Origin: a virus
Strand: one strand, 5' to 3'
Length of the DNA: 32,223 nt
UHGV virus genome: UHGV-1520234
The position numbers and the translations under genes were made by a program. Below the pieces are notes generated by a model. It did no database searches, had not been told where the DNA came from, and was given only the letters and a program-made list of their open reading frames with translations. Shown piece after piece: positions 19,727 to 32,176 of this stretch. How positions within the stretch are numbered: the stretch's first letter is position 1; each line of letters begins with the position of its first letter.

Positions 19727-21348
19727 CAGGCCTGTCTCCCTAGCAGCTCCCAGATGTTCAGGGCTGAATTCATTGGCGCGTAGCTGATCATCACCGAGTC
19801 GGCAAGGTTTGGCGACCGGGTTCCATCAGGCTGTTTATCAATAACGATTTTTCCCACACCATTAATGGAATAGGTCGGCTGCGAAAGCTCGATGATGAGT
19901 TTATCTTTGAGTGCCATGCCACTGCTGATTGAGATGATTTCGTCCGGGTTGTAAGCCATACCTTCAATCACGGCGCGCCAGGTATTCTGAAAAAGTTTAC
20001 GTAACCGCCACCAGCTCTGGGCTTTGGCGTTAGCGAAGAAGTCCTTGTTCAGACGTGCGGCTTGCCCGTTGTCACCGCGCACCGCTTCGTCGTCCGGATC
20101 AAACACCGCGCCGCTACCGCGAAACGGTGTAGCGAGTATTGACGGTCGACGCGCAGCGTTACGCTGTTCGTTGATAGCGCGTGCATCGCCGCGAACGCCA
20201 GCGCCCAGCCCGTCCTCATCAAAGCGAAACTCTTCGAGGTTGTCCTGTTCGCAAAAACCGAAGACCTTCTCGACGGACTGATAAATGTCGCTGCCCACAC
20301 CGGACCATTCCCGCACATTCTCCAGGAGGAAGCCATGACGGGTGGAAAAGGCATTTTTGTCCCTGCCTTCGTCGGCGACATCCATCGCGCCAAGTCGTTT
20401 GCCTGTTGGCTGGATCCCCAGTTTGATATGTGCATCAACGGCAGCCTGTACCCATTCGGATGGAATCAGGACGCCTTCCGCTGATGCGCTGTAGTTCAGG
20501 TCAAGTTCCTGTGCCACCACCACCGGATTATCGATTTTCTCGCATTCCCTGCGATACCACTCTTCATCCTTGCGAGGATCATCCCGCCAGTGGAATGTGA
20601 ATACCGGTATCTTCCCGCCATGACGCTTCTGAGCGAACGGGTTCGCCATGCCGTTAACTGAACTCAGGTCGATACGGCAACGCGTCGTTTGTGACAACGC
20701 CGCATCAATCAGCAAAGGACGCTGAAGGAATGCAGCCTCATCAACCAGATAAAGCGTGGTACGGTCACCACGACCAATATTATCGCCAGCCTCGCCTTTG
20801 ATAACGGCACCAGTTTCAGGAAACTCAACACGCATATATGGCGCGTGCTTCTTCTCGCTCCACGAACCGCGAAACTCTACAGGTAGCGTTTCCACGAACT
20901 TGCGCGCCTTCCAGAACAACGCTTTCGGGTCACCAGTGCTGTCGACGTATTCCTCTTTACGGGAGCCGAAACCGATAACCATTTCTTTGTTGAAGAGACA
21001 AAGCGAGCAGGCCAGTCCGATCGCGGTCCAACTGAGCCCCATTTCACGGGATTTTTCGGTAATACCATTCTCCCGATTACCCCAGCGTTCCATAATCCAG
21101 TGGATCCACTCCTCCTGCTTAGGGAAGAGTAAAAACGGAATGGTCACCGGCAGGCCATAATCAATATTACGCGGGTCCGTTGTCATGCCCCAGTCGATGA
21201 TGAACTGAGCCGGGTTGGTCCGGTAAAACTGCTTCAATACGGGCAATATTTCAGGATTCTGGCGAATGCGCTGTAGGCGTTCCATCCGCCATTCAAAAAC
21301 TATCTGGTAATCAGGATGTTTAAAATCGAAGGGGAATGGTAACGGCAT
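19726..21348 (-). CDS. Terminase large subunit
   Basis: 540-aa ORF with an ATG start following the small terminase; contains a Walker B-like LYLVDEAAF and a nuclease-like C-terminal half. Confidence 0.75.
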
Positions 21349-21350
21349 AC

Positions 21351-21902
21351 TTAGCCCATCATTTTTCTATACGCCTCTGCAGCCTGCTCCGGAGTTAAGT
21401 TGGTAATTTCTGTTCTGACTGGTCCTCCATCAGCGCCAGTCACTTCATTTTTGACGTTGTCTTTAAACGCCTGAACAGAAACATGACGCCCAAGCAACTC
21501 AAGGTTTTTAACCTTATCAGGCCATTTGATTTTCTTCAGGAGTGCGGCGCTATCTGCGGATACCATCTCCACGACATCCATTCCCGATAACGTTGTGCGC
21601 CATACCTTAGGCCAGTCTTTAATGGGTTTTAGCTCACCGTTTTGCAGGAGAATGTCAAGCACATCCATCTGGTCGATTTCAATAAGGCGATTAAGTACAT
21701 ATTCTGCATTAATACCAACAAGATCATTGCGTTGCGCTTTCAGTTCGGCGATTCTTAACTTGATGTCAGGTTTTGACAGGTTTTCGGATGCGGTACGGTT
21801 AGCTGTCTTTGCGCTGTACCCCGCCCGAATAGCCGCTTGCGTGGCGTTTAAATCGATGAGGTACTCGCGACAGAACATTTCTTGCTTGTCGGTGAGTGCC
21901 AT
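21351..21902 (-). CDS. Terminase small subunit
   Basis: 183-aa ORF with N-terminal [22 protein letters not shown], a recognisable small-terminase DNA-binding motif; directly upstream of the large terminase. Confidence 0.7.
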
Positions 21903-21926
21903 AGTTTTCTCTAGAGGGTTTCTTTA

Positions 21927-22163
21927 ATGAACTCAAAGCAAATTTTTTACCGAAATACAGGTCATGATAATGAAACTTATATATTCCTGGACAAATTGGA
22001 CAATGGCTCCTACCAAGTCAGGGTTGGTCATTCGTCGCCTGTGAGCCATTTTGAATGGGAGGGTGATGAAACCATTCAGACAGTGGAAGAGTTTCTAGGT
22101 TCTAACCCATCATATACTGAACGTGTTCATCAACTAATTTCTGAGTTTGAAGCAGAATCGTAA
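21927..22163 (+). CDS. Hypothetical small acidic protein, antisense to the late operon (moron candidate)
   Basis: 78-aa ORF, ATG at 21927 with GAGGG 8 nt upstream; AT-rich with rare codons (ATA, AGG, CTA, CGA); divergent from terS with 24 bp between the start codons. Confidence 0.4.
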   Translation: MNSKQIFYRNTGHDNETYIFLDKLDNGSYQVRVGHSSPVSHFEWEGDETIQTVEEFLGSNPSYTERVHQLISEFEAES

Positions 22164-22458
22164 TCACCACCCAAGCGACTCAACTGATATCTAGTTCATC
22201 ATTACTAGGACTAAAAGTAGATTCCTGACATTGAGGGACCTCTTTATCCGCTTGTGGGGATATCAGTTAAGTTATCCCGTGTAGGGTATAAGCCATTGTC
22301 GAGACCACTCATTGAATGGTCTCTGCAATAACCGATGTCTTTCCATCAGTCCGCCACCACAAAGAATCTTTTTTGCCATAATGCAGGAGGTTCATCTTTC
22401 AGTGGCTGCCAGTGTTATTTCCCCACTTACTGGCTTGGGTTGTTTCGCTGTACTGCCG

Positions 22459-23001
22459 TTAATTAGTGAGTCCGGGGATTACGGTTTGCCCGTGCTGTTC
22501 AAGGCGTTCAATTCTCGCCAGTAGCTGAGGCTTCTTAATTTTTCCCCAGCGATTAAGCAGGCGCCCTGACATGCTGGCAACATCCTTCTCTTTCATGTAC
22601 TCCAGCATTACGGCATTTCTCTCTTCTTCAAATTGACGATGACCAACCTGAAGCATGGCGTACATCCAGTTAAATGCGTTGATGTAAGCAATTTTGATAC
22701 GCATTGCTTCTTTTTTGGTGTAGGACATAACCAAAAGCATCAACCCATCCTTGCGGAGACGGTAGAATTTTTGCGGCTTACCATTCTGTAACTCATTGTT
22801 TTTATAGCAAAGCTCAAAGTTGAGCTTTGTATCAAACTCAGGAGGGCAAGCTTCTATGGTTCGTTCAATGTCACGAACCACGTTCTTCGGCAGCTTTCCA
22901 AATGCTTTTGCCACCATAAAAGAATCTGTAACCGGATCGTTGTTTGCTACAAAAATTAGGTCTCTGAAATCTATATCGTTAACAACGGTTGGGTAGTTCA
23001 T
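22459..23001 (-). CDS. rha: Rha-family phage regulatory protein
   Basis: 180-aa ORF with an ATG start; N-terminal region (VAKAFGKLPKNVVRDIERTIEACPPEF...NFELCYKNN...YRLRKDGLMLLVMSYTKKEAMRIKIAYINAFN) matches the Rha-domain pattern. Located between lysis genes and terminase, as rha is in P22. Confidence 0.55.
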   Translation of the reverse strand: MNYPTVVNDIDFRDLIFVANNDPVTDSFMVAKAFGKLPKNVVRDIERTIEACPPEFDTKLNFELCYKNNELQNGKPQKFYRLRKDGLMLLVMSYTKKEAMRIKIAYINAFNWMYAMLQVGHRQFEEERNAVMLEYMKEKDVASMSGRLLNRWGKIKKPQLLARIERLEQHGQTVIPGLTN

Positions 23002-23149
23002 TGCGTCTTTACCTTTTAGAAAGATGAGCCTGTTCGCACAGAAAAGCCGTCCCCGAGATGGTCGCCACCATATACGGCAATTCTCAGGCTCAGCTTTCTG
23101 AAAGACTCGGGATTGTTACGCGCTGCGATGCGCGGTTTACTGCAGATGC

Positions 23150-23173
23150 AAAAAAGCCCCGCAAATGCGAGGC
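23150..23173 (-). terminator. Terminator-like hairpin between Rz and rha
   Basis: On the minus strand GCCUCG...CGGGGC (one G-U wobble) followed by UUUUUU (plus A-tract 23150-23155). Confidence 0.4.
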
Positions 23174-23347
23174 TAAATCCTGGTATTTGTAATGACTGGC
23201 TCTTATCTCAACGCAGCCCCTTACCGCGCGCCAGATGCTCAATATCAAGCATCAGCAATGAGATGTTTAATCTGGATTCACTCCAGAAGTGATCACCACC
23301 CTGTCTACAGAGCCAGATGTGAAGGATGATGAGTAAAATTATCGCTA

Positions 23348-23806
23348 TCATCGAAGGCATTGCGTCCTGATGTATTCCTGCAGGTAGTTAACCTGCGCGG
23401 TTATCCTGTCGATTCCACTTCGGAGACGGTAATAATTGAGTTCAGCATCTGCTGTAAGTCTTGGGCTTTCTCCATCGCCCATGCTGCTGGCTCCGGTCGT
23501 TGACTTTGCACAGGTGGCGGCGACTTGCAGGCGCTTACGCCCAGCAGAAACATCAGCACGAAGACTTTCGATAGTCGCGTTAGCATCAGCAAGCTCCTTT
23601 GTGTATCTGGCGTCGAGTTCTGCTACATCACGCTGACGCATCTGCATGTCAGTAATTGCCACGTTCGCCAGCTTCAGTTCTCTGGCATTTTTGTCGCGCT
23701 GGGCTTTGTAGGTAATGGCGTTATCACGGTAATGATTAACAGCCCATGACAGGCAGACGATGATGCAGATAACCAGAGCGGAGATAATCGCGGTGACTCT
23801 GCTCAT
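23348..23806 (-). CDS. Rz: Rz i-spanin
   Basis: 152-aa ORF with an ATG start and 4-nt overlap with R; the N-terminal ~95 aa are near-identical to lambda Rz as I recall it, while the C-terminal third diverges. Confidence 0.85.
23401..23586 (-). CDS. Rz1: Rz1 o-spanin lipoprotein, embedded out of frame within Rz
   Basis: ORF in the +1 frame wholly inside Rz; first ATG at 23586 gives [20 protein letters not shown] with lipobox VSAC followed by a proline-rich segment, the typical Rz1 architecture. Confidence 0.7.
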
Positions 23807-24279
23807 ACCTCAATCTCTCTGACCGTTCCGCCAGCTTCTTTGAATTTTGCAATCAGGCTGTCAGCCTTATGCTCGAACTGACCATAACCAGCGCCCGGAA
23901 GAGAAGCCCAGATATTGCTACAACGGTCGATAGCCTGACGGATATCACCGCGATCAATCATCGGCAAAGCGCCACGCTCTTTAATCTGTTGCAATGCCAC
24001 AGCGTCCTGGCTTTTCGGAGAGAAGTCTTTCAGGCCAAGCTGCTTACGATAGGCATCCCACCAACGGGAAAGAAGCTGGTAACGTCCGGCAGCTGTTGAT
24101 TTGAGTTTGGGGTTTAGCGTGACAAGTTTGCGAGGGTGATCGGAGTAATCAGTGAATAGCTCTCCGCCAACAATGACGTCATAACCATGATTTCTGGTTT
24201 TCTGTCGTCCGTTATCAGTTCCCTCTGACCACGCCAGCATATCGAGGAACGCCTTACGTTGATTATTGATTTCCACCAT
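23803..24279 (-). CDS. R: Endolysin R (lytic transglycosylase, lambda R-like)
   Basis: 158-aa ORF with an ATG start, overlapping S by 17 nt as in lambda; sequence essentially matches lambda R as recalled. Confidence 0.9.
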
Positions 24280-24586
24280 CTTCTACTCCGGCTTTTTTAG
24301 CAGCGAAGCGTTTGATAAGCGAACCAATCGAGTCAGTACCGATGTAGCCGATGAACACGCTCGTTATATAAGCGAGATTGCTACTTAGTCCTGCGAAGTC
24401 GAGAAGGTCACGAATGAACCAGGCGATAATGGCGCACATCGTTGCGTCGATTACTGTTTTTGTAAACGCACCGCCATTATATCTGCCGCGAAGGTACGCC
24501 ATTGCAAACGCAAGGATTGCCCCGATGCCTTGTTCCTTTGCCGCGAGAATGGCGGCTAACAGGTCATGTTTTTCTGGCATCTTCAT
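24263..24586 (-). CDS. S: Holin S with dual start (S107 antiholin / S105 holin)
   Basis: 107-aa ORF beginning [10 protein letters not shown]; ATG codons at 24586 and 24580 reproduce the lambda Met1-Lys2-Met3 dual-start motif; near-identical to lambda S. Confidence 0.9.
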
Positions 24587-24705
24587 GTCTTACCCCCAAT
24601 AAGGGGATTTGCTCTATTTAATTAGGAATAAGGTCGATTACTGATAGAACAAATCCAGGCTACTGTGTTTAGTAATCAGATTTGTTCGTGACCGATATGC
24701 ACGGG

Positions 24706-24741
24706 CAAAACGGCATGAGGTTGTTAGCGCAACCTCTTGCC
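24706..24741 (-). other. Stem-loop upstream of S
   Basis: Imperfect inverted repeat ggcatgaggttg / caacctcttgcc with a U-run following on the minus strand; lies in the stretch that matches the lambda sequence just upstream of S. Confidence 0.4.
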
Positions 24742-24884
24742 ACCCGCTTTCACGAAGCCAGCCATTGAGCTGGTTTTCTTTTATGCAAAGCACACCGCAC
24801 CGTAGCCACAGCGGATAAGGTGATTATTTTTGTCTGTCTGGTATTTGGTTTGATGTGCTTTCAGAAAGGCCGTGCTTAAAACGC

Positions 24885-24912
24885 AAAAAGCCCCGAGCTA
24901 TTAACTCAGGGC
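24885..24912 (-). terminator. tR'-like intrinsic terminator ending a short PR' leader
   Basis: Minus-strand transcript GCCCUGAG-UUAAUAG-CUCGGGGC followed by UUUUUG; about 60 nt downstream of the predicted PR' start. Confidence 0.55.
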
Positions 24913-24948
24913 TTTATTTAACGAGTGCATTTATCCATCGTTGAGTCA

Positions 24949-24977
24949 AATTTACCCAATTTTATTCAATAAGTCAA
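24949..24977 (-). promoter_or_regulatory. Late promoter PR' with qut region
   Basis: Minus strand reads TTGACTTATTGAATAAAATTGGGTAAATTTGACTCAACGATGG: -35 TTGACT (24977..24972), 17-bp spacer, -10 TAAATT (24954..24949). This matches lambda PR' as recalled; sequence then diverges from lambda downstream of about +10. Confidence 0.7.
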
Positions 24978-25019
24978 TATCATGCCGTTAATATGTTGCC
25001 ATCCGTGGCAATCATGCTG

Positions 25020-25643
25020 CTAACGTGTGACCGCGTTCAAAATGTTGTCTGCGATTGACTCTTCTTTGTGGCATTGCACCACCAGAGCGTCATACAGCGG
25101 CTTAACAGTGCGTGACCAGGTGGGTTGGGTGAGGTTTGGGATTAGCATCGTTACAGCGCGATATGCGGCGCTTGCTGGCATTCTTGAATAGCCGACACCT
25201 TTGCATCTTCCGCACTCTTTCTCAACAACTCTCCCCCACTGCTCTGTTTTGGCTATATCAACCGCACGGCCTGTACCGTGGCAATCTCTGCATCTTGCGC
25301 CCGGCGTCGCGGCACTACGGCAATAATCCGCATAAGCGAATGTTGCGAGCACTTGCAGTACCTTTGCCTTAGTATTTCCTTCAAGCTTTGCAACGCCACG
25401 GTATTTCCCCGATACCTTGTGTGCAAATTGCATCAGATAGTTGATAGCCTTTTGTTTGTCGTTCTGGCTGAGTTCATGCTTACCGCAGAATGCAGCCATT
25501 CCGAATCCGGCTTGTGATTGCGCCATCCCCATAGCAGCCATCACATCAGTACCGGAAAGAGAGTCAGAAGCCGTAGCCCGTGGTGAGTCGCTCATCATCG
25601 GGCTTTTTGGCGAATGAAATTTAGCTACGCTTTCGAGTCTCAC
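25020..25643 (-). CDS. Q: Late antiterminator Q (lambda Q-like)
   Basis: 207-aa ORF, essentially the lambda Q sequence as recalled; the start codon here is GTG, overlapping the ninI stop (GTGA). Confidence 0.9.
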
Positions 25644-26305
25644 GCGCCTTCTCCCTGTACCTGAATCAATGTGAGATTTCCGCAGAACACTGCGCCGGTA
25701 TCGATATACATCTGGTTGGCAAATTTGAGTGGTTTCACTGCTGGCGTGTGACCAAAGATGAACGTGTCCGCGCCTTTAATTTCTTTCACGATCCCGATTT
25801 GTGAGTTGCTGATTCGTTCGCGGTTCCAGATTACCTGCTGATGATCAACTGGCTTTCCAAATTCGTATTCTTCACAAGGATAATCGGCGTGGCAGATGAC
25901 ATGTTTTTTACCTTTGCTCACCAGTTCGATGATTAACGGAAGTTCTTCTGCTTTATGGGCAAGAGCTTTAGCCAGAATTTCTTTGTCGTAATCGAGATTA
26001 AAGAACCAGCCACCGCCATTAAGCAGCCAGTGATTAACGTTTCCACGCTCTGATAAGCCATCAATCATCATTTGCTCATGGTTTCCACGTACAGCTCTGA
26101 ACCAGGGGAATGTGATTAATTCCATACATTCGACGTTCTCTGTACCGCGATCAACCAAATCGCCAACCGAGATAAGCAGGTCTTTTTTGGTGTCGAATCC
26201 TATCGTCTCCAGTTTTTTCATCATGTTCGTGTAGCATCCGTGCAGATCGCCAACTACCCAAACATTTCGGTATTTGCTGCCATCAATTCTTTCGTAATAG
26301 CGCAT
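25640..26305 (-). CDS. ninI: Ser/Thr protein phosphatase (lambda NinI-like)
   Basis: Track ORF begins at a TTG at 26380; the homologous start is ATG at 26305 ([25 protein letters not shown]...) with GGAG upstream, giving 221 aa. Metallophosphatase motifs GDLHG, GDLVDRG and GNHE are present. Confidence 0.85.
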
Positions 26306-26489
26306 CTCTTTCACTCCATCCGCGATGAACCATAAGAACGTCGTTGACGATGGCGTGCATTTTCCCGTCTTTATCATCAACGTATTTTCTGACCGTGCCG
26401 CGACTACATTTCAGTCTGCGTGCTACTTCTGTCTGGTTTCCGTATGCTTCAACAAGCATGTCTGGAATGGTTTTTACTGAGAACGTCAT
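26283..26489 (-). CDS. ninH: NinH
   Basis: 68-aa ORF with ATGA overlap to the ninG stop; same length and position as lambda NinH. Confidence 0.75.
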
Positions 26490-27097
26490 GCGGCCTCACT
26501 TCTGCTATTTCGCAGGTCTTTGAGTTTCTTCTGATACTCCGCCTTGATGGCCATGCACTCTTCGACAGTCCAACGATGGCGGCTATGGTTTGATTCGATT
26601 TCGTCTACTGCTTCCTGCCCGATGCGGCTAATCAGTTCGACGCGATACGGAACGAGATTTCCGCTTTTGTGCTGGTTGCACACCACGCATTGCTTGTGAA
26701 TATTGCGTTCATCAAATCGGAGTTGAGGTGCCGCAGCAGTTGTCCGGTAATGTCCGGCATCCCACTGAGCAGACGTGAGCGTTCCGCACGAGATACATGG
26801 TAAGTCGCGGTCTCTTTCTCTGATGAAAGCGTTTACGGCTTGTTGGGCTTGTTTAATCCAGTAACTGCGGGGCTTTAAGGCGAGTTTTCGAATCTTAAGT
26901 TTATCTTTCTGTTTCTGCTCCTCTCGTCTTCGTTTCTTCTCTGCTGCTTTTTCCGCTTTTTCGCGTTCTTTACTTCGTCGTTCGAGTGCTATCTTGGTTC
27001 CACACTCTGGAGAGCACCACCACTGATTAGCGAATGCAGGGTGAAACCATTCCCGACATTCATCGTTTTTACATCGTCTTCGCGCTGGTTTAGCCAT
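26486..27097 (-). CDS. ninG: NinG recombination protein (Rap-like)
   Basis: 203-aa ORF with an ATG start overlapping the ninF stop; cysteine-rich (CxxC pairs), matching lambda NinG in size and position. Confidence 0.8.
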
Positions 27098-27266
27098 CGT
27101 CTTCTTCCTCGTACATTGAGCTATTCGGATCGCTCATCAGTTCTGCGCAGCAGTGCTCACACACGTGAACTTCCAGCACATGCAGCTTCTGGCCGCAGTT
27201 AGCGCACGTTAAAGCCCGCTCGACGCTTTCTTTCTGGTATTGAAGGGATTGGGATGGGCTAAGCAT
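27090..27266 (-). CDS. ninF: NinF (58 aa, not in the ORF track)
   Basis: Translated by hand: [58 protein letters not shown]; ATG at 27266 overlaps the upstream stop (TAATG). Confidence 0.65.
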
Positions 27267-27625
27267 TATTGGATTCTCTGCATCATGAGAAAGACAATCA
27301 TGGCGGCGCGGAGGGGATTTTCATGTATAGCTCGCTTAGATTTACAGTAGGCCACACCGCGTGCACCCCACTCGTCTTCATCGAGATTGATAATGCTAAT
27401 CCTGTATTTTTCAATAATCGGCCATGCGTCTGCTGGGTTTGCGCATGGGTTAAAGGATCCGCGCTCAACTTCTACTTCAACTGCGTCTCCGTTTACAACG
27501 TCTCCCTCAAATGAGACAAACACCATATCGCCATTCTCACCTTCTTTGTAATCCGGTGATCCGTTATGAATGGCTTCGAATACCGCCACGTTAATTTCAA
27601 AATCACTTAACTGTGAATAATCCAT
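27266..27625 (-). CDS. Hypothetical acidic protein inserted between ninE and ninF
   Basis: Track ORF begins at a GTG at 27667; ATG candidates at 27631 and 27625 (MDYSQLSDFEINVAV...), the latter with GAGGA 8 nt upstream. Canonical lambda has no gene between ninE and ninF. Confidence 0.5.
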   Translation of the reverse strand: MDYSQLSDFEINVAVFEAIHNGSPDYKEGENGDMVFVSFEGDVVNGDAVEVEVERGSFNPCANPADAWPIIEKYRISIINLDEDEWGARGVAYCKSKRAIHENPLRAAMIVFLMMQRIQ

Positions 27626-27627
27626 TG

Positions 27628-27804
27628 TCATTTCCTCGCACGATGTCTTAGCCACCGGATATCCCACAGGTGAGCCGTGTAGTTGAAGGTTTTTACGTCA
27701 GATTCTTTTGGGATTGGCTTGCGTTTATTTCTGGAGCGTTTCGTTGGAAGGTATTTGCAGTTTTCACAGATTATGTCGGTGATACTTCGTCGCTGTCTCG
27801 CCAC
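27628..27804 (-). CDS. ninE: NinE-like protein (about 58 aa, not in the ORF track)
   Basis: Hand translation from a GTG at 27804: [57 protein letters not shown]; AGGAGG lies only 3 nt upstream, so the exact start is uncertain. Confidence 0.5.
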
Positions 27805-27944
27805 ACGTCCTCCTTTTCCTGCGGTAGTGGTAACACCCCTGTTGGTGTTCTTTCACACCGGAGACACCATCTATTCCAGTAAGGTTGGTTTGGTCGGAAG
27901 CGGTTATCTTCTTTGCATTCACCGCACCGATAACATCGCATCAT
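27771..27944 (-). CDS. ninD: NinD-like small zinc-finger protein (57 aa, not in the ORF track)
   Basis: Hand translation: [57 protein letters not shown]; ATG overlaps the ninC stop (ATGA); two CxxC pairs. Confidence 0.55.
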
Positions 27945-28813
27945 GCAGCCTCCCTCCCGAAGTCGAAATCAAGCTGCCCTCCAAATATTTCGCATGACTC
28001 AGAACAAGAGCCGGTATCGAATCTTTTAGCTCGTACCATGTCCTGATACAGGGCTTGATAATCATTTTCTGAATACATTTTCGCGATACCGTCCAGCGAC
28101 ATTCTTCCTCGGTACATAATCTCCTTTGGCGTTTCCCGATGTCCGTCACGCACATGCGATCCCGTGATGACCTCATTAAAAACACGCTGCAATCCCTCCT
28201 CATCTTTGCAGGCAAGTCCGATTTTTTGCGTTGATTTTTTAATGCAGAATATGCAGTTACCGAGATGTTCCGGTATTTGCAAATCGAATGGTTGTTGCTT
28301 CCACCATGCGAGGATATCTTCCTTCTCAAAGTCTGACAGTTCAGCAAGATATCTGATTCCAGGCTTTGGCTTTAGCCGCTTCGGTTCATCAGCTCTGATG
28401 CCAATCCACGTGGTGTAATTCCCTCGCCCGAAATGGTCATCACAGTATTTGGTGAAGGGAACGAGTTTTAATCTGTCAGTGCAGAACGCGCCGCCGACGT
28501 ATGGAGTGCCATATTTCTTTACCATATCGATAAATGGCTTCAGAACAGGCAGTCGCGTCTGAATATCCTTTGGTTCCCATACCGTATAACCATTTGGCTG
28601 CCCAAGCTCTGGGTTGATATCAACCTGCAATACGGTGAGCGGTATATCCCAGAACTTCACAACTTCCCTGACAAACCGATATGTCATTGGATGTTCACAA
28701 CCTGTATCCATGAAAACGTAATGCACGTCTTCACCTGCCCGTCGCTTTTGCTCCATTAGCCAGAGCAAATATGCTGACGTCCTGCCACCGGAGAAACTAA
28801 CGACATTTATCAT
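27941..28813 (-). CDS. ninC: NinC (PAPS reductase-like family)
   Basis: Track ORF extends upstream to 28873; the ATG at 28813 ([18 protein letters not shown]...) overlaps the ninB stop and gives 290 aa, the lambda NinC length. SFSGG P-loop-like motif typical of the PAPS reductase/ATP-PPase fold. Confidence 0.8.
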
Positions 28814-29250
28814 GCAGCCCTGTCTCCCCATCGCGCTTTCCACTCCAGAGCCAGTCGCGCTTCGTCTGACCACTTAACGCCACGCTCTGTACCGAATGCC
28901 TGTATAAGCTCTAATAGCTCCGCAAATTCGCTTACACGCATCCTGCTGGTTGACTGGCCTATTACCACAAAGCCATTCCCGGCAAGGTTAGGAACAACAT
29001 CCTGCTGCTTTAATGCTGCGGTAAACACACACTTCCAGCTTTCTGCATCCAGCCAGCGACCATGCCATTCAACCTGACGAGAGACGTCACCTAAGCAGGC
29101 CCATAGCTTCCTGTTTTGGTCTAAGCTGCGGTTGCGTTCCTGAATGGTTACTACGATTGGTTTGGTTGGGTCTGGAAGAATTTGCTGTACTGCGTGAATA
29201 GCGTTTTGCTGATGTGCTGGAGATCGAATTTCAAAGGTTAGTTTTTTCAT
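28810..29250 (-). CDS. ninB: NinB recombination protein (Orf family)
   Basis: Track ORF begins at a TTG at 29268; ATG at 29250 (MKKLTFEIRSPAHQQ...) with a G-rich RBS gives 146 aa, the lambda NinB length. Confidence 0.8.
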   Translation of the reverse strand: MKKLTFEIRSPAHQQNAIHAVQQILPDPTKPIVVTIQERNRSLDQNRKLWACLGDVSRQVEWHGRWLDAESWKCVFTAALKQQDVVPNLAGNGFVVIGQSTSRMRVSEFAELLELIQAFGTERGVKWSDEARLALEWKARWGDRAA

Positions 29251-29270
29251 GACTTCCCTCTCCCCCAAAT

Positions 29271-29298
29271 AAAAAGGCCTGCGATTACCAGCAGGCCT
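29271..29298 (-). terminator. tR2-like intrinsic terminator between the replication genes and the nin region
   Basis: Perfect 8-bp stem aggcctgc (29275-29282) / gcaggcct (29291-29298) with an 8-nt loop; on the minus strand it is followed by UUUUUAUUUG. Confidence 0.55.
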
Positions 29299-29327
29299 GT
29301 TATTAGCTCAGTGATGTAGATGGTCAT

Positions 29328-31208
29328 TTAATACTCCGTCACGTTTTCCTGTCGCCACGCCTCGTCATATTCCGATTTCGGCATATTGGCGATGTAGCTA
29401 TATGGCGATCCTGATTCAAGTTGCAGGAACTGGTGCGATTGCTCGTCAAGGAACAACGGGACACCACCTTCCCAACCTTCGCCGTTACGTTGTTTTTCAA
29501 GCATCAAAACAGATGCCGGAGATGCCAGTAGCTGTTCGTCCTTCTCTGACATCTTTTCACCACTCTGAACTCTCTGTAACGCTCTCTCGCGAGCCTTGTT
29601 ACGCCAGATGATGAAAAGGTTGTCTGTCAGGTCTGTTATCGCTCCAGAGCCTTTTACGTCCATTTTCCCGGTTGGTTTTTCTTCGCTGTCTCCTTTTCGC
29701 GAGTGAGTAACGAGAATGACGTGGGAGTTTGTTTTGTTTTTGAAGTCGCAAATCGAGTCAACAAACGCCTTCTGCCCGTTATAGTCATCGTCGCCTATGC
29801 CACATTTCATCAGGCTGTCGATGATGAATAACTGGATCCCGTATCGGCGGCGAGCGTAGTCGAATATTTCGATCAGCCTGTCGGCTTTCGCCGTTCCGGT
29901 CAGGCCAAACACCCAAAGTCTTTCGTCATAAAATTTAAATGCAGAGTCAATTTCCAGCACTGGCGGAATCTTGCAGCACGTCGCCTGACGGGTAAGGCGC
30001 TTAAGGAGAATACCAGGCTTCAGCTCAAGTGACGCGATGCACGTCTTCACACCCTGACGCATTGCCTCAAGTGCCATATGCCCGACAACCTCCGTTTTTC
30101 CGTGACCGTTCACACCATTGACCAGCGTCAACTCTGCCTCACGGAACTGGAATTTATCTGCCAGAGATTCCCACGGTGGATTAAACAGATACTGCTGCTT
30201 GCCGTAGAAAGCGTTGATAGTGTCCTGGTAAAACTCTCGCGCGCTGTAGAGTTCTTCAGGATCGAAGTAGGATGCCGTGCCGATGTACTGCCAGATTTCA
30301 TCCTCGGTAACACCGTTCATCAGGCATTCGTTGATGTCTTTGTACGGCAGAGTAACAAGACGGCAACGATGTTCACCGAGTCGGCTTGCGATTTCCCTTG
30401 CGGCTTCACGACCAACATCATCAACGTCCATCGAGATGAATATTTCCTCAAACCTGTCGAGGTTGTGATACTCAAACTCAATCCACTGCTGCTTAGCGCC
30501 TTTCCCGCCACCAAACGGCACGGATAACGCCGAGATGCCGTATTGCGCATAGCTCATACAATCAATTTCGCCTTCGCAAAGTACAACCGCCCTCACGCCA
30601 GCGTCCAGAGCCTGCCATCCGAACAGACAAGGTTCGCAATCACCTTCTGCCATAATGACTTTCTTCCCGTCCGGGCGCTCAGTGCTGATTCGCTTGACCT
30701 GCAACAACTCACCATCGCGTTTGTACGGAAGCACCAGAGCATCCAGTTCTCGTTCTCCATTCCACACCTTGCCGCTGACAACCTCGTAGCGCTTTACGAC
30801 TTCTGGCGATATGCCACGCGATTGCAGGTACTCAAGATGGGATTCTGTTCTGGTAACGTAGCGGGCGATTTTCTTGCGATCAGGCCTGGAGAATTTCTTC
30901 TCACGTCTGGCATCGAAATGGTGATCGTCATCCTTGATACCGAGAAATGCTTTCGCTTCCTGCATAGCCTGATGCAGGTTAATTCCACGACATGCCATCC
31001 ACAAATCAAGCATGTCACCGCCGTCTCCCTCAGCGAAATCAGCCCATTTTTTCTTGCCGCTAAGGTTGACCTTAAGGCTGTTTCCCTTGTCACCGTTGAC
31101 GTTACCGGCAACCCACTCATGCCCCTCTTTCTTGCCGTTTGGCAACAGGTGCGGAGCCACCCTGTCAACCTGCGCCCAAAGCAGGTCACTGAGTTCACTT
31201 GGCGTCAT
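29328..31208 (-). CDS. Bifunctional DNA primase / replicative helicase (Toprim N-terminal, DnaB-like C-terminal)
   Basis: 626-aa ORF with an ATG start; central acidic Toprim-like segment (VVLCEGEIDCMSYAQ) and a C-terminal Walker A (GVNGHGKTE) with a Walker B-like LFIIDS. Confidence 0.75.
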   Translation of the reverse strand: MTPSELSDLLWAQVDRVAPHLLPNGKKEGHEWVAGNVNGDKGNSLKVNLSGKKKWADFAEGDGGDMLDLWMACRGINLHQAMQEAKAFLGIKDDDHHFDARREKKFSRPDRKKIARYVTRTESHLEYLQSRGISPEVVKRYEVVSGKVWNGERELDALVLPYKRDGELLQVKRISTERPDGKKVIMAEGDCEPCLFGWQALDAGVRAVVLCEGEIDCMSYAQYGISALSVPFGGGKGAKQQWIEFEYHNLDRFEEIFISMDVDDVGREAAREIASRLGEHRCRLVTLPYKDINECLMNGVTEDEIWQYIGTASYFDPEELYSAREFYQDTINAFYGKQQYLFNPPWESLADKFQFREAELTLVNGVNGHGKTEVVGHMALEAMRQGVKTCIASLELKPGILLKRLTRQATCCKIPPVLEIDSAFKFYDERLWVFGLTGTAKADRLIEIFDYARRRYGIQLFIIDSLMKCGIGDDDYNGQKAFVDSICDFKNKTNSHVILVTHSRKGDSEEKPTGKMDVKGSGAITDLTDNLFIIWRNKARERALQRVQSGEKMSEKDEQLLASPASVLMLEKQRNGEGWEGGVPLFLDEQSHQFLQLESGSPYSYIANMPKSEYDEAWRQENVTEY

Positions 31209-31315: not shown

Positions 31316-32176
31316 TCACCTGTCGAAAAACACGTAGCCAGTTTTCGATACGGTGATTGCGGATGATGGTTTGGATTGTGGTTGAATGGTTTCTGGCTTT
31401 TCGTCGTTCCAGCGCTGACCGTTCAAGTAGCTCGATGGTAACAACCTGTCGAATCCGAACTGCTTACCATTCCTGCATGCGATGTCTTCTGCCAGCATCG
31501 TGGCAAACTCGCTTGCCGTACCCCTGGTAGTTTTACGCCATTCCCTGAACTGTGTTCTGAATGCCGAAGCTGCGTTTTTTTTCCCGGCTTTCCGCATGCC
31601 TGCACACCAGAATATTTCCTCGAATGCCTTGTCGGTTTCTTCGTGACGGTCAGGTGATTTTTCACACTCCGTCCGAACACTTTCGGACATAGTGTTTTTA
31701 TTATTTCTTTTTTCTTTTGTAATAGTTTCTTTTGTGTGTCCCTGTTTTGGTGACAGCGCTGTCACCGTTTTGGTGACACTTTTTGTCACCAATGCAGTGA
31801 CATTATCACCAGAGTAGTGACACCCTTCGATTTGCCATTCCTCGATGTTCTTGTTAGGCCCGATTTGCTGGCCTTCGCGAAGGATAACCTTCATCGCGAT
31901 AAGCTCATTCTTGGCCTTGTTTACCTTCTGTCTTGGCAGCCTGGTAATTTGAGCTAACTGACTATCAGAGATGCAATCCATCTTTTTACCGTAGCCGTAT
32001 GTTTTACGGCATATGGCGTGGGCAACCTTGCTCTGATTTTTCGTTAAATCTGCGCCGATAAGCTCTTCATACAGGGCATTTGCAAGACGGGTATAACCAT
32101 CTTCAACTTCTGCCACACGACGCTCCACAGGCCGTTGTGAAGGCCTTAAATGTGTTACGGTTGCAAGATTACTCAT
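31316..32176 (-). CDS. O: Replication initiator, lambda O-like N-terminal domain
   Basis: 286-aa ORF with an ATG start and GGAGAAAGG RBS; the N-terminal ~110 aa align with lambda O as recalled (DGYxRLxNxLxExxxGADLTKxQxKV...KTYGxxKxMDxIxDSQLxxITxLP...GPNKNIxEW); iterons lie within the coding sequence. Confidence 0.75.
   Translation of the reverse strand: MSNLATVTHLRPSQRPVERRVAEVEDGYTRLANALYEELIGADLTKNQSKVAHAICRKTYGYGKKMDCISDSQLAQITRLPRQKVNKAKNELIAMKVILREGQQIGPNKNIEEWQIEGCHYSGDNVTALVTKSVTKTVTALSPKQGHTKETITKEKRNNKNTMSESVRTECEKSPDRHEETDKAFEEIFWCAGMRKAGKKNAASAFRTQFREWRKTTRGTASEFATMLAEDIACRNGKQFGFDRLLPSSYLNGQRWNDEKPETIQPQSKPSSAITVSKTGYVFFDR
31694..31735. other. AT-rich putative DNA-unwinding region of the origin
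   Basis: AT-rich stretch (tttttattatttcttttttcttttgtaatagtttcttttg) immediately on the O-downstream side of the iterons, the same order as in the lambda ori. Confidence 0.5.
31735..31825. repeat. Replication origin iterons inside the O gene
   Basis: Four spaced inverted-repeat units built on GTGACA/TGTCAC half-sites: perfect 18-bp palindrome ggtgacagcgctgtcacc (31749-31766), ggtgacactttttgtcacc (31772-31790), gtgacattatcacc (31797-31810), gtgacac (31818-31824). Confidence 0.6.

Follow-up and report, generated by a model that had tools for sequence, protein, structure and literature searches.

The window analysed here, a whole stretch of 32,223 nucleotides, contains a run of late genes that reads as lambda in some places and as something else in others, and it raises the question of where these types meet and against which phage the run should be read. 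An earlier note had described it as a lambda module with foreign replacements. We read this run, at a probability of about 0.88, as the cassette for late control and lysis from a lambdoid prophage or phage contig, apparently put together from alleles in circulation among the lambda-, HK97- and P22-like phages. Its mosaic junctions are real but ordinary: they belong to the well-known patchwork of lambdoid genomes, are already known, and add nothing new. All genes of the region, and the other cassette features located below, are on the minus strand.

Nucleotide alignment with lambda (NC_001416, 43886–46427) gave two long matches: window 24920–27232, from NinG through Q to PR′, against lambda 44609–42297 (96.9% identity), and window 23537–24757, comprising S, R and the 5′ part of Rz, against lambda 46235–45015 (95.7%). 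Q, PR′/qut, the S leader, S, R and Rz nt 1–182 were of lambda type at 96–100% identity. Two segments were without lambda type, 24919–24758 (the tR′ region) and 23624–23348 (the 3′ part of Rz and all of Rz1). In 50-nt bins against lambda, HK97, P22, Sf101 and Emek, identity switched sharply at 24934–24920, 24757/8 and 23633/24, with blocks of at least 90% identity adjoining DNA that was unrelated or approximately 50–70% identical, while synteny with lambda, HK97, P22 and Sf101 was kept. The exchange points, expected to be mappable within tens of bases, were thus resolved to a few bases, and the likeness to lambda is genuine. All ORFs spanning the junctions were intact, and the lysis ORFs carried the expected Pfam domains. 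No Rfam family reached its gathering threshold anywhere in the window.

The late antiterminator gene Q (25020–25643, GTG start; Pfam Antiterm, PF03589, E = 1.3e-57) was of lambda type, with 205 of 207 amino acids identical. The promoter scan placed the late promoter PR′ at 24949–24977, with a −35 element TTGACT (24977–24972), a 17-nt spacer and a −10 element TAAATT (24954–24949). Window 24977–24935, which covers all three, equalled lambda 44552–44594 base for base, the promoter itself being listed against lambda 44554–44582; the match claimed for Q and for the promoter elements thus held. The Q-binding element in the spacer and the qut assignment follow established knowledge and the annotation of the P22 record. 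Aligned to the +1 annotated in that record, transcription would start at about 24942. The initial transcribed region (24920–24942), which by alignment contains a −10-like pause element AACGAT, was identical to lambda from +1 to +8, and four substitutions at +9 to +17 matched the P22/HK97 type. The estimate that divergence sets in about 10 nt past the start was therefore roughly right for the first mismatch, at approximately +9 (24934), but similarity was wholly gone only past approximately +23 (24920). This junction lies within conserved sequence, that of qut and the initial transcribed region. In epsilon34, a P22-like phage, the combination of a lambda-type Q and a qut identical to that of lambda has already been described (PMC2629481).

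Part of the DNA between PR′ and S was indeed unlike lambda. The gap at 24919–24758 is a P22/HK97-type segment of 162 nt standing, between +23 and the S leader, in place of 404 bp in lambda (44610–45013), where tR′ lies at approximately +194 and orf-64 is found. By terminator scan, folding and alignment, the segment contains a predicted intrinsic terminator, tR′, with a 13-bp hairpin at 24915–24887 (about +28 to +56) and a T-tract running to about 24878 (about +65); its fold was −24.9 kcal/mol (z = −3.06). The homologous segment of P22 (NC_002371) was approximately 75% identical, with its annotated terminator equally far from PR′; the aligned site is labelled “t late or tR′” in the P22 record and terminator in Emek. 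Covariation lent the hairpin no support, as its pairs were invariant in four of the five phages compared; in the fifth sequence, Sf101, the alignment read by eye shows a C/A mismatch in the hairpin.

Downstream of this segment, a conserved 171-nt leader 5′ of S (24587–24757) is common to lambda, HK97 and Sf101 and was 94–100% identical to lambda. The match to lambda therefore starts again 171 nt upstream of the S ATG, farther out than the proposed distance of about 120 nt. In CUS-3, the homologous 241 bp 5′ of S is annotated “bsq3; boundary sequence”, and conserved DNA downstream of Q is likewise annotated as boundary sequence. The holin/antiholin gene S (24263–24586; dual-start motif MKM; Pfam Phage_holin_3_1, E = 2.4e-30) and the lambda-type transglycosylase endolysin gene R (23803–24279; PHROG 90 endolysin, E = 1.6e-63) matched lambda as claimed, at 106/107 and 156/158 amino acids, respectively. 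By comparison, P22 holin gene 13 was 58–94% identical to the window S per 50-nt bin, P22 endolysin gene 19 could not be aligned to the window, and the 5′ part of P22 gene 15 was of P22 type.

The last lysis gene, Rz (23348–23806), follows R and encodes a putative i-spanin of 152 amino acids (Pfam Phage_lysis, PF03245, E = 2.4e-41) that is a hybrid by alignment. Residues 1–61 were of lambda type (60/61 identical, with an identical hydrophobic N-terminus), and residues 62–152 were of P22/HK97 type (43/93 identical to lambda from residue 62 to the end). At the nucleotide level the lambda-type stretch matched at 181 of 182 positions; high identity ended at 23625 (nt 182, codon 61) and fell to 71.6% over 88 nt (23624–23537), then to 48%. 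The embedded o-spanin gene Rz1 (23401–23586; 61 amino acids, +1 frame inside Rz, lipobox VSAC; Pfam Rz1, E = 2.2e-20) was wholly of P22 type, with two to three differences from the Rz1 of P22 and Sf101 and only 24 of 70 residues identical to lambda Rz1. The Rz C-terminus together with Rz1 was approximately 96% identical to P22 in nucleotides. An informative-site test assigned 33 of 33 sites at 23714–23633 to lambda and 108 of 108 at 23624–23348 to P22 (Fisher p = 6e-33, indel sites not being independent), leaving as the crossover interval the 8 nt CGTGATGT at 23625–23632 (Rz nt 175–182).

This interval lies at 40% of Rz, and the match to lambda thus stops at codon 61 rather than after two-thirds of the gene. 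Divergence of the Rz C-terminus and Rz1 was correctly foreseen, but it takes in the C-terminal 60% of Rz, not a third, and all of Rz1. A breakpoint within the Rz/Rz1 overlap was ruled out, the crossover being 38–46 nt upstream of the Rz1 ATG (23586). Rz and Rz1 bind via their C-termini (PMC6139136). The alignments indicate that a cognate P22-type Rz C-terminus and Rz1 were inherited together; the proposal that the spanin partners were exchanged jointly is correct, though close to automatic, because the part of Rz that binds Rz1 is also the part in which Rz1 is nested, with the crossover upstream of Rz1.

Beyond Rz, a small 50-aa ORF with a hydrophobic N-terminus overlaps the Rz stop (23208–23360; PHROG 11822, unknown function, E = 3.9e-38). 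This ORF belongs to the Sf101/CUS-3/epsilon34 type and to a cluster of n = 566, and its counterparts in Sf101 and E. coli carry the annotation hypothetical; it also marks the end of HK97/P22 similarity, at about 23355. Here the window follows Sf101/CUS-3, not HK97. The terminator scan placed a terminator-like hairpin downstream of the lysis cassette at 23155–23174.

Against HK97 and Sf101, the whole block from Q to Rz/Rz1 is collinear. HK97 (NC_002167, 35196–37462) was collinear from the start of Q to the stop of Rz (window 25642–23355) at 95.6%, Sf101 was collinear with window 26500–22225 at 96.7%, and the equivalent regions of mEp234, HK544 and mEp213 resemble the window as HK97 and Sf101 do. 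The HK97/Sf101 group and the window share lambda-type Q, qut, S and R, the short P22-type tR′, and the P22-type Rz C-terminus with Rz1. Neither “non-lambda” segment is a rare allele: the tR′ segment was found at ≥94% identity in approximately 50 phage records, and the P22/HK97/HK022-type Rz C-terminus with Rz1 at ≥95% in 160. The junctions against lambda in the earlier note stand, but its framing as a lambda module with foreign replacements is misleading; lambda is the wrong comparator for the module, and HK97 and Sf101 the right ones. Rz in the HK97/Sf101 group has 145 amino acids and is P22-type throughout, whereas that of the window has a lambda-type patch of approximately 80 nt with seven extra residues. 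What sets the window apart from its nearest relatives is the lambda-type patch at Rz codons 32–57, the opposite of what had been proposed.

The flanking modules partly bore out their earlier description. Replication genes were non-lambda, with a Toprim/DnaB-like primase-helicase (29328–31208) and an O-like protein (31316–32176), and the structural module was of contractile-tail type (Pfam Baseplate_J, DUF3383 and a baseplate hub). The sole specifically Mu-related match was to a Mu F-like head-morphogenesis domain (Pfam). Identity as an SfV-like or Mu-like phage was unsupported; the nearest structural relatives were vB_EcoM-611R5 (95.7%) and Salmonella phage SEN34 (81.5%).

The hybrid Rz was found outside the window as well. 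Among complete E. coli genomes, 42 records contained its crossover at ≥99% identity. The exact junction was absent from 50,697 phage records, where the best full-length match (89.6%) carried a third patch allele. With one genome per species, an exact 35-mer across the junction matched E. albertii alone, and the region in common was the Rz gene alone. WP_000091923.1, a “lysis protein” of E. coli 55989, and its homologue in E. albertii NBRC 107761 are the same 152-aa hybrid, with the lambda-type patch, the P22-type C-terminus and Rz1 (for WP_000091923.1, 96.9% nucleotide identity across the gene and 145/152 amino acids). The upstream genes there encode a class II holin and another lysozyme, and similarity to the window begins and ends at the Rz gene borders. 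As the hybrid lies behind differing holin and endolysin genes, it circulates as an established unit.

These occurrences bear on whether the junctions are chimeras of metagenome assembly, which we consider highly improbable. The window is apparently an entire metagenomic contig, the exact Rz protein occurs on only two contigs, and the whole combination was found at ≥99% in 0 phage records and 0 complete E. coli genomes; for the whole 5-kb neighbourhood, no identical copy was present in complete E. coli genomes, the best matches being 94–97% over 76–86% of the query. Coverage of the late region was 80% or more in roughly 690 E. coli genomes. Against assembly error, each single junction is found in finished genomes: the tR′ segment is flanked by lambda-type Q and S in HK97, Sf101, mEp234 and others, the Rz crossover is in the 42 E. 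coli records, and the junction ORFs are intact.

The Rz patch could also have arisen by point-mutational divergence or diversifying selection on hypervariable codons 32–57, with no recombination. At least three patch alleles (lambda type, P22 type and mEp235/CM2010-0578 type) do exist, separated by numerous substitutions and a 7-codon indel in genes that are nearly identical elsewhere. The near-perfect lambda match upstream, the uniform P22-type sites downstream, the absence of intermediates and the recurrence of the same allele combination in unrelated lysis cassettes make this account very hard to credit, such tracts being beyond the reach of independent mutation.

The arrangement in the window may be the ancestral or typical one and lambda the recombinant, having gained the long PR′–S insertion (6S RNA, orf-64) and, perhaps from relatives resembling Stx phages, another Rz C-terminus with its Rz1; we hold this to be a serious candidate, at somewhat below even odds. 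Of 50,697 phage records, only 24 carried the lambda-type 404-bp segment in full, almost all of them lambda or close kin, and pieces of it aligned with unrelated loci, among them tRNA genes of large myoviruses. The P22/HK97-type segment is widespread, and Stx-phage alleles show 80–90% similarity to the lambda-type Rz C-terminus. However, this concerns only the polarity of the same events and leaves the identity of the window unchanged, and the lambda-type Rz patch, set against HK97, P22 and Sf101, calls for at least one exchange specific to the window/55989 lineage. For each exchange, either allele may be the parental one.

On the preferred reading, of a lambdoid cassette built from circulating alleles, the junctions would have arisen when co-resident lambdoid genomes recombined, homologously or homeologously, at stretches common to the alleles: the qut and initial-transcribed region, the conserved S leader and the RQRDVA-coding stretch of Rz. 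At Rz, PR′ and the S leader the junctions do lie within sequence common to both parental types. A shoulder of reduced identity has been tied to homeologous recombination (Martinsohn et al. 2008; PMC2327257), and on that criterion the 88-nt shoulder at the Rz junction may be a sign of homeologous exchange. At 24757/8 there is no shoulder on the lambda side, and this junction could just as well reflect illegitimate recombination or an indel that arose long ago in the lambda lineage. The Rz crossover would have fused a transmembrane and membrane-proximal coiled-coil part of lambda type with a P22-type remainder; as the latter brings its own embedded Rz1, the C-terminal Rz–Rz1 pair would stay cognate.

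In the proposed working of the cassette, lambda-type Q would load onto RNA polymerase paused just past the lambda-identical PR′/qut and permit read-through of the promoter-proximal P22-type tR′. Without Q, a transcript of approximately 60 nt would be expected, compared with the 194-nt 6S RNA of lambda. Read-through would lead to expression of S, R and the Rz/Rz1 spanin, and then of the Rha and terminase genes; Rz and Rz1 would form a complex via their C-termini and disrupt the outer membrane. The gene workings are drawn from near-identity to studied genes, with read-through, hairpin termination and hybrid-spanin activity assigned by homology.

Lambda/P22 crossover points in Rz vary between lineages within approximately 90 nt, and the long and short forms of the patch differ by exactly one heptad (seven residues). 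Codons 32–57, where the first coiled coil begins next to the membrane, might form an independently exchangeable hypervariable cassette, an idea we regard as unlikely. If true, it would point to selection on a short Rz segment itself, beyond neutral shuffling, for example on spanin length or register, or for avoiding a host or prophage factor.

The locus has little importance beyond bookkeeping. For annotation, its late terminator is the short P22-type tR′ and not the lambda 6S arrangement, its Rz is a lambda/P22 hybrid allele already circulating in E. coli and E. albertii prophages, and lambda is a poor reference for the Q-to-Rz module. It serves as a tidy illustration of lambdoid mosaicism: one crossover is narrowed to 8 nt, and recombination inside one gene of a nested pair leaves the C-terminus of Rz with the Rz1 with which it interacts.

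Comparison of the window with lambda (NC_001416) by BLAST and by global alignment with lambda 40000–48502 identified three collinear blocks: window 27631–29327 matched lambda 42263–40567 with 99.0% identity, 24920–27232 matched 44609–42297 with 96.9%, and 23537–24757 matched 46235–45015 with 95.7%. The mosaic junctions with lambda proposed in the earlier note were thus borne out in outline, the collinear blocks (95.7–99.0%) ending in sharp breaks. Identity at the protein level was 205/207 for Q, 106/107 for S, and 156/158 for R.

Every gene of the late-control and lysis region is carried on the minus strand, with predicted functions based on near-identity to lambda and P22 genes. NinI (26305–25640; protein comparison with lambda) is followed by Q (25643–25020; Pfam Antiterm), whose start codon (25641–25643, minus strand) is GTG versus ATG in lambda, the overlap with the NinI stop being kept (GTGA versus ATGA). 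A promoter scan located a promoter (−35 TTGACT, 17-nt spacer, −10 TAAATT) at 24977–24949, and a terminator scan with RNA folding located an intrinsic-terminator hairpin with a T-tract at 24915–24887. The lysis genes are S (24586–24263; dual start MKM; Pfam lambda holin), R (24279–23803; PHROG endolysin), Rz (23806–23348, 152 aa; Pfam Phage_lysis), and Rz1 (23586–23401, 61 aa; +1 frame within Rz, lipobox VSAC; Pfam Rz1). A 50-aa ORF (23360–23208, minus strand) overlaps the Rz stop, beginning within the last Rz codons with a hydrophobic N-terminus. It matched PHROG 11822 (unknown function) end to end, is labelled hypothetical in Sf101 and E. coli, belongs to a protein cluster of 566 members, and occurs as the exact sequence on at least 1000 contigs; the lysis cassette has this ORF as a conserved fifth gene. 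Further along the minus strand are a second terminator-like hairpin (23174–23155; terminator scan), a Rha-family gene (23001–22459; Pfam), the small terminase (21902–21351; Pfam Terminase_2), and the large terminase (21348–19726), the last assigned by position and by the “terminase large subunit” annotation beneath phage matches, without a Pfam match.

The late promoter PR′, its spacer, and the first 8 transcribed bases were the same as in lambda throughout. The initial transcribed region had four substitutions at about +9 to +17, and no lambda similarity was left beyond about +23 (24920). Similarity started again at 24757, so that 162 nt of the window stand in place of lambda 44610–45013 (404 nt). 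Divergent DNA upstream of S had been predicted and is present, with its boundary 171 nt, rather than about 120 nt, upstream of the S start codon. In a search of phage records, the 162-nt segment was at least 94% identical in about 50, including HK97, HK544, HK140, mEp213/234/235/043, mEpX1/X2, and Emek, and about 75% identical in P22 and relatives; the complete lambda form was found in 24 phage records only, essentially lambda and near relatives. For the homologous stretch, the RefSeq record of P22 has annotations of PR′, a qut-like site, an RNA 5′ end, and “t late or tR′”; in a multiple alignment the RNA 5′ end mapped to about 24942 and tR′ to about 24912–24885, which is the hairpin from the terminator scan. 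The Emek record labels the same hairpin a rho-independent terminator and a site upstream of it qut. The alignment of both annotations with this hairpin indicates that the predicted tR′ of the window is the short, promoter-proximal P22/HK97 form. Without antitermination, the PR′ RNA would be about 60 nt, versus the 194-nt 6S RNA of lambda.

A small hairpin (AACGAUG...C.UCGUU) could form in the initial 23 nt of the RNA predicted to start at PR′ (24920–24942, minus strand), with three of the four lambda/P22-type substitutions in the loop and one forming the stem-top pair; lambda and the window share the outer five pairs (AACGA/UCGUU), and the sequences folded were five of P22/HK97 type only. At the exact point where similarity to lambda returns (24757/8), the other strand from the late genes has a terminator-like hairpin followed by a T-run (24754–24777, plus strand); this may be a match by chance, four such sites having come out of the scan versus 2.0 ± 1.2 expected. 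One part of the lambda-specific stretch from tR′ to S that the window lacks, lambda 44866–44952, resembles tRNA genes annotated in large myoviruses of E. coli (about 83% identity) and a segment of phage P7 (98.5%).

An uninterrupted alignment to the window ran from the Q start to the Rz end (25642–23355, 95.6%) in HK97 (NC_002167) and over 26500–22225 (96.7%) in Sf101. Epsilon34 is a published P22-like phage with a lambda-type Q and qut (PMC2629481). Judged on sequence, lambda is not the right comparator for the Q-to-Rz region.

Identity of Rz to lambda was 181/182 down to 23625, 63/88 (71.6%) at 23624–23537, and 48% thereafter. A switch away from lambda within Rz had been proposed at two-thirds of the gene; the break exists, but at 40% of the gene by alignment. 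In a 50-nt identity map against five phages, 23700–23651 was the sole bin in which the window matched lambda (98%) but departed from HK97, P22, Sf101, and Emek (34–38%). Nucleotide alignment showed that Rz codons 32–57 (the patch) are of the lambda version in the window, with 21 extra nt (NARELKL), whereas these four phages have the shorter P22 version. With the P22 type defined as the consensus of the same four, 33/33 informative sites at 23714–23633 were lambda-type and 108/108 at 23624–23348 were P22-type, a pattern that places a single crossover within CGTGATGT (23632–23625; Rz nt 175–182), 38–46 nt upstream of the Rz1 ATG. In HK97 and Sf101 the change from lambda-like to P22-like sequence comes earlier in the gene, upstream of about 23714, and the lineages therefore differ in crossover point over a span of about 90 nt in the 5′ part of Rz. 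The segment encoding the Rz C-terminus and Rz1 (23620–23340) was at least 95% identical in 160 phage records, including HK022, HK97, HK75, epsilon34, P22, and some Stx phages, and Rz residues 62–152 and Rz1 were essentially the P22/HK97/Sf101 sequences.

The hybrid Rz (lambda-type N-terminal part, P22/HK97-type remainder) was absent from 50,697 phage records, in which the best full-length matches (89.6%) were mEp235 and Chlobot, both with a third patch allele. Across the junction, 42 complete E. coli genome records matched it at 99% or more. The same allele, of 152 aa, is found in E. coli 55989 (96.9% nt, 145/152 aa) after a different lysozyme and a class II holin; the similarity to the window spans the gene and stops at both of its borders. 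Among species-representative genomes, the exact junction 35-mer occurred only in E. albertii NBRC 107761, which has the Rz gene alone in common with the window. E. coli CM2010-0578/1 has the whole arrangement from Q to the small ORF at 97.1%, yet with the third patch allele. The exact window Rz protein was recorded on two metagenome contigs only, the longer of which (JGI/IMG and ENA) has the window's own length of 32,223 bp; the window is thus probably an entire contig of metagenomic origin, and no complete E. coli genome was more than about 97% identical over 21000–26000. Given its presence in complete E. coli genomes and E. albertii, the hybrid Rz is therefore an established, moderately rare prophage allele, and only its set of neighbours in the window is not on record.

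The lambda-like nin region extends to 29327, which corresponds to the end of ren in lambda (40567), and directly adjoins a Toprim/DnaB-like primase-helicase gene (29328–31208); this gene and an O-like gene at 31316–32176 are of Sf101/APC_JM3.2 type. Between ninE and ninF, a 398-nt insertion relative to lambda (27233–27630) carries a 133-aa ORF (27266–27667) and matches Sf101 at 98.6% in its right-hand part, over 27590–27797. The virion genes (1493–21541) were 95.7% identical to vB_EcoM-611R5/606R2 and 81.5% to Salmonella phage SEN34, and encode a tape-measure-like protein, a Mu F-like head protein, and a DUF1073-type portal. They also encode Baseplate_J, DUF3383, and a baseplate hub, which upholds the contractile-tail part of the proposed “Mu-like contractile-tail module”. 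Between the Rha and small terminase genes, where Sf101-like DNA meets 611R5/SEN34-like DNA, a 78-aa ORF lies on the opposite strand (21927–22163, plus strand) and had no Pfam or PHROG match.

The mosaic pattern fits recombination inside sequence common to the alleles. The Rz crossover sits in a stretch conserved between alleles, followed by a 72% shoulder, a signature that Martinsohn et al. tied to Red-type homeologous recombination in lambdoid phages (PMC2327257). The PR′ junction falls in the qut and initial-transcribed region, which is under functional constraint and is shared by every phage that has a lambda-type Q. In the CUS-3 record, the conserved stretches preceding S and directly following Q are labelled bsq3 and bsq4, for boundary sequence, a concept put forward for lambdoid module junctions (as cited in PMC3029335). 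The P22-type part of Rz contains the whole of Rz1, and the two proteins bind via their C-termini (PMC6139136); the interacting parts were therefore necessarily inherited together, which supports the suggestion that the spanin partners were exchanged jointly, although this follows almost automatically.

The junctions are real, and their positions can be mapped precisely. Every one is already found in finished genomes, and they represent standard, already known lambdoid mosaicism from common alleles, of low interest overall. The patch (23633–23714, minus strand) has at least three alleles (lambda-type, P22-type, and mEp235/E. coli CM2010-0578 type), and its long and short alleles are exactly 7 residues apart. 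This difference equals one coiled-coil heptad and would preserve register, and this multi-allelic, heptad-sized patch in the Rz coiled coil is the only mildly interesting residue of the finding.
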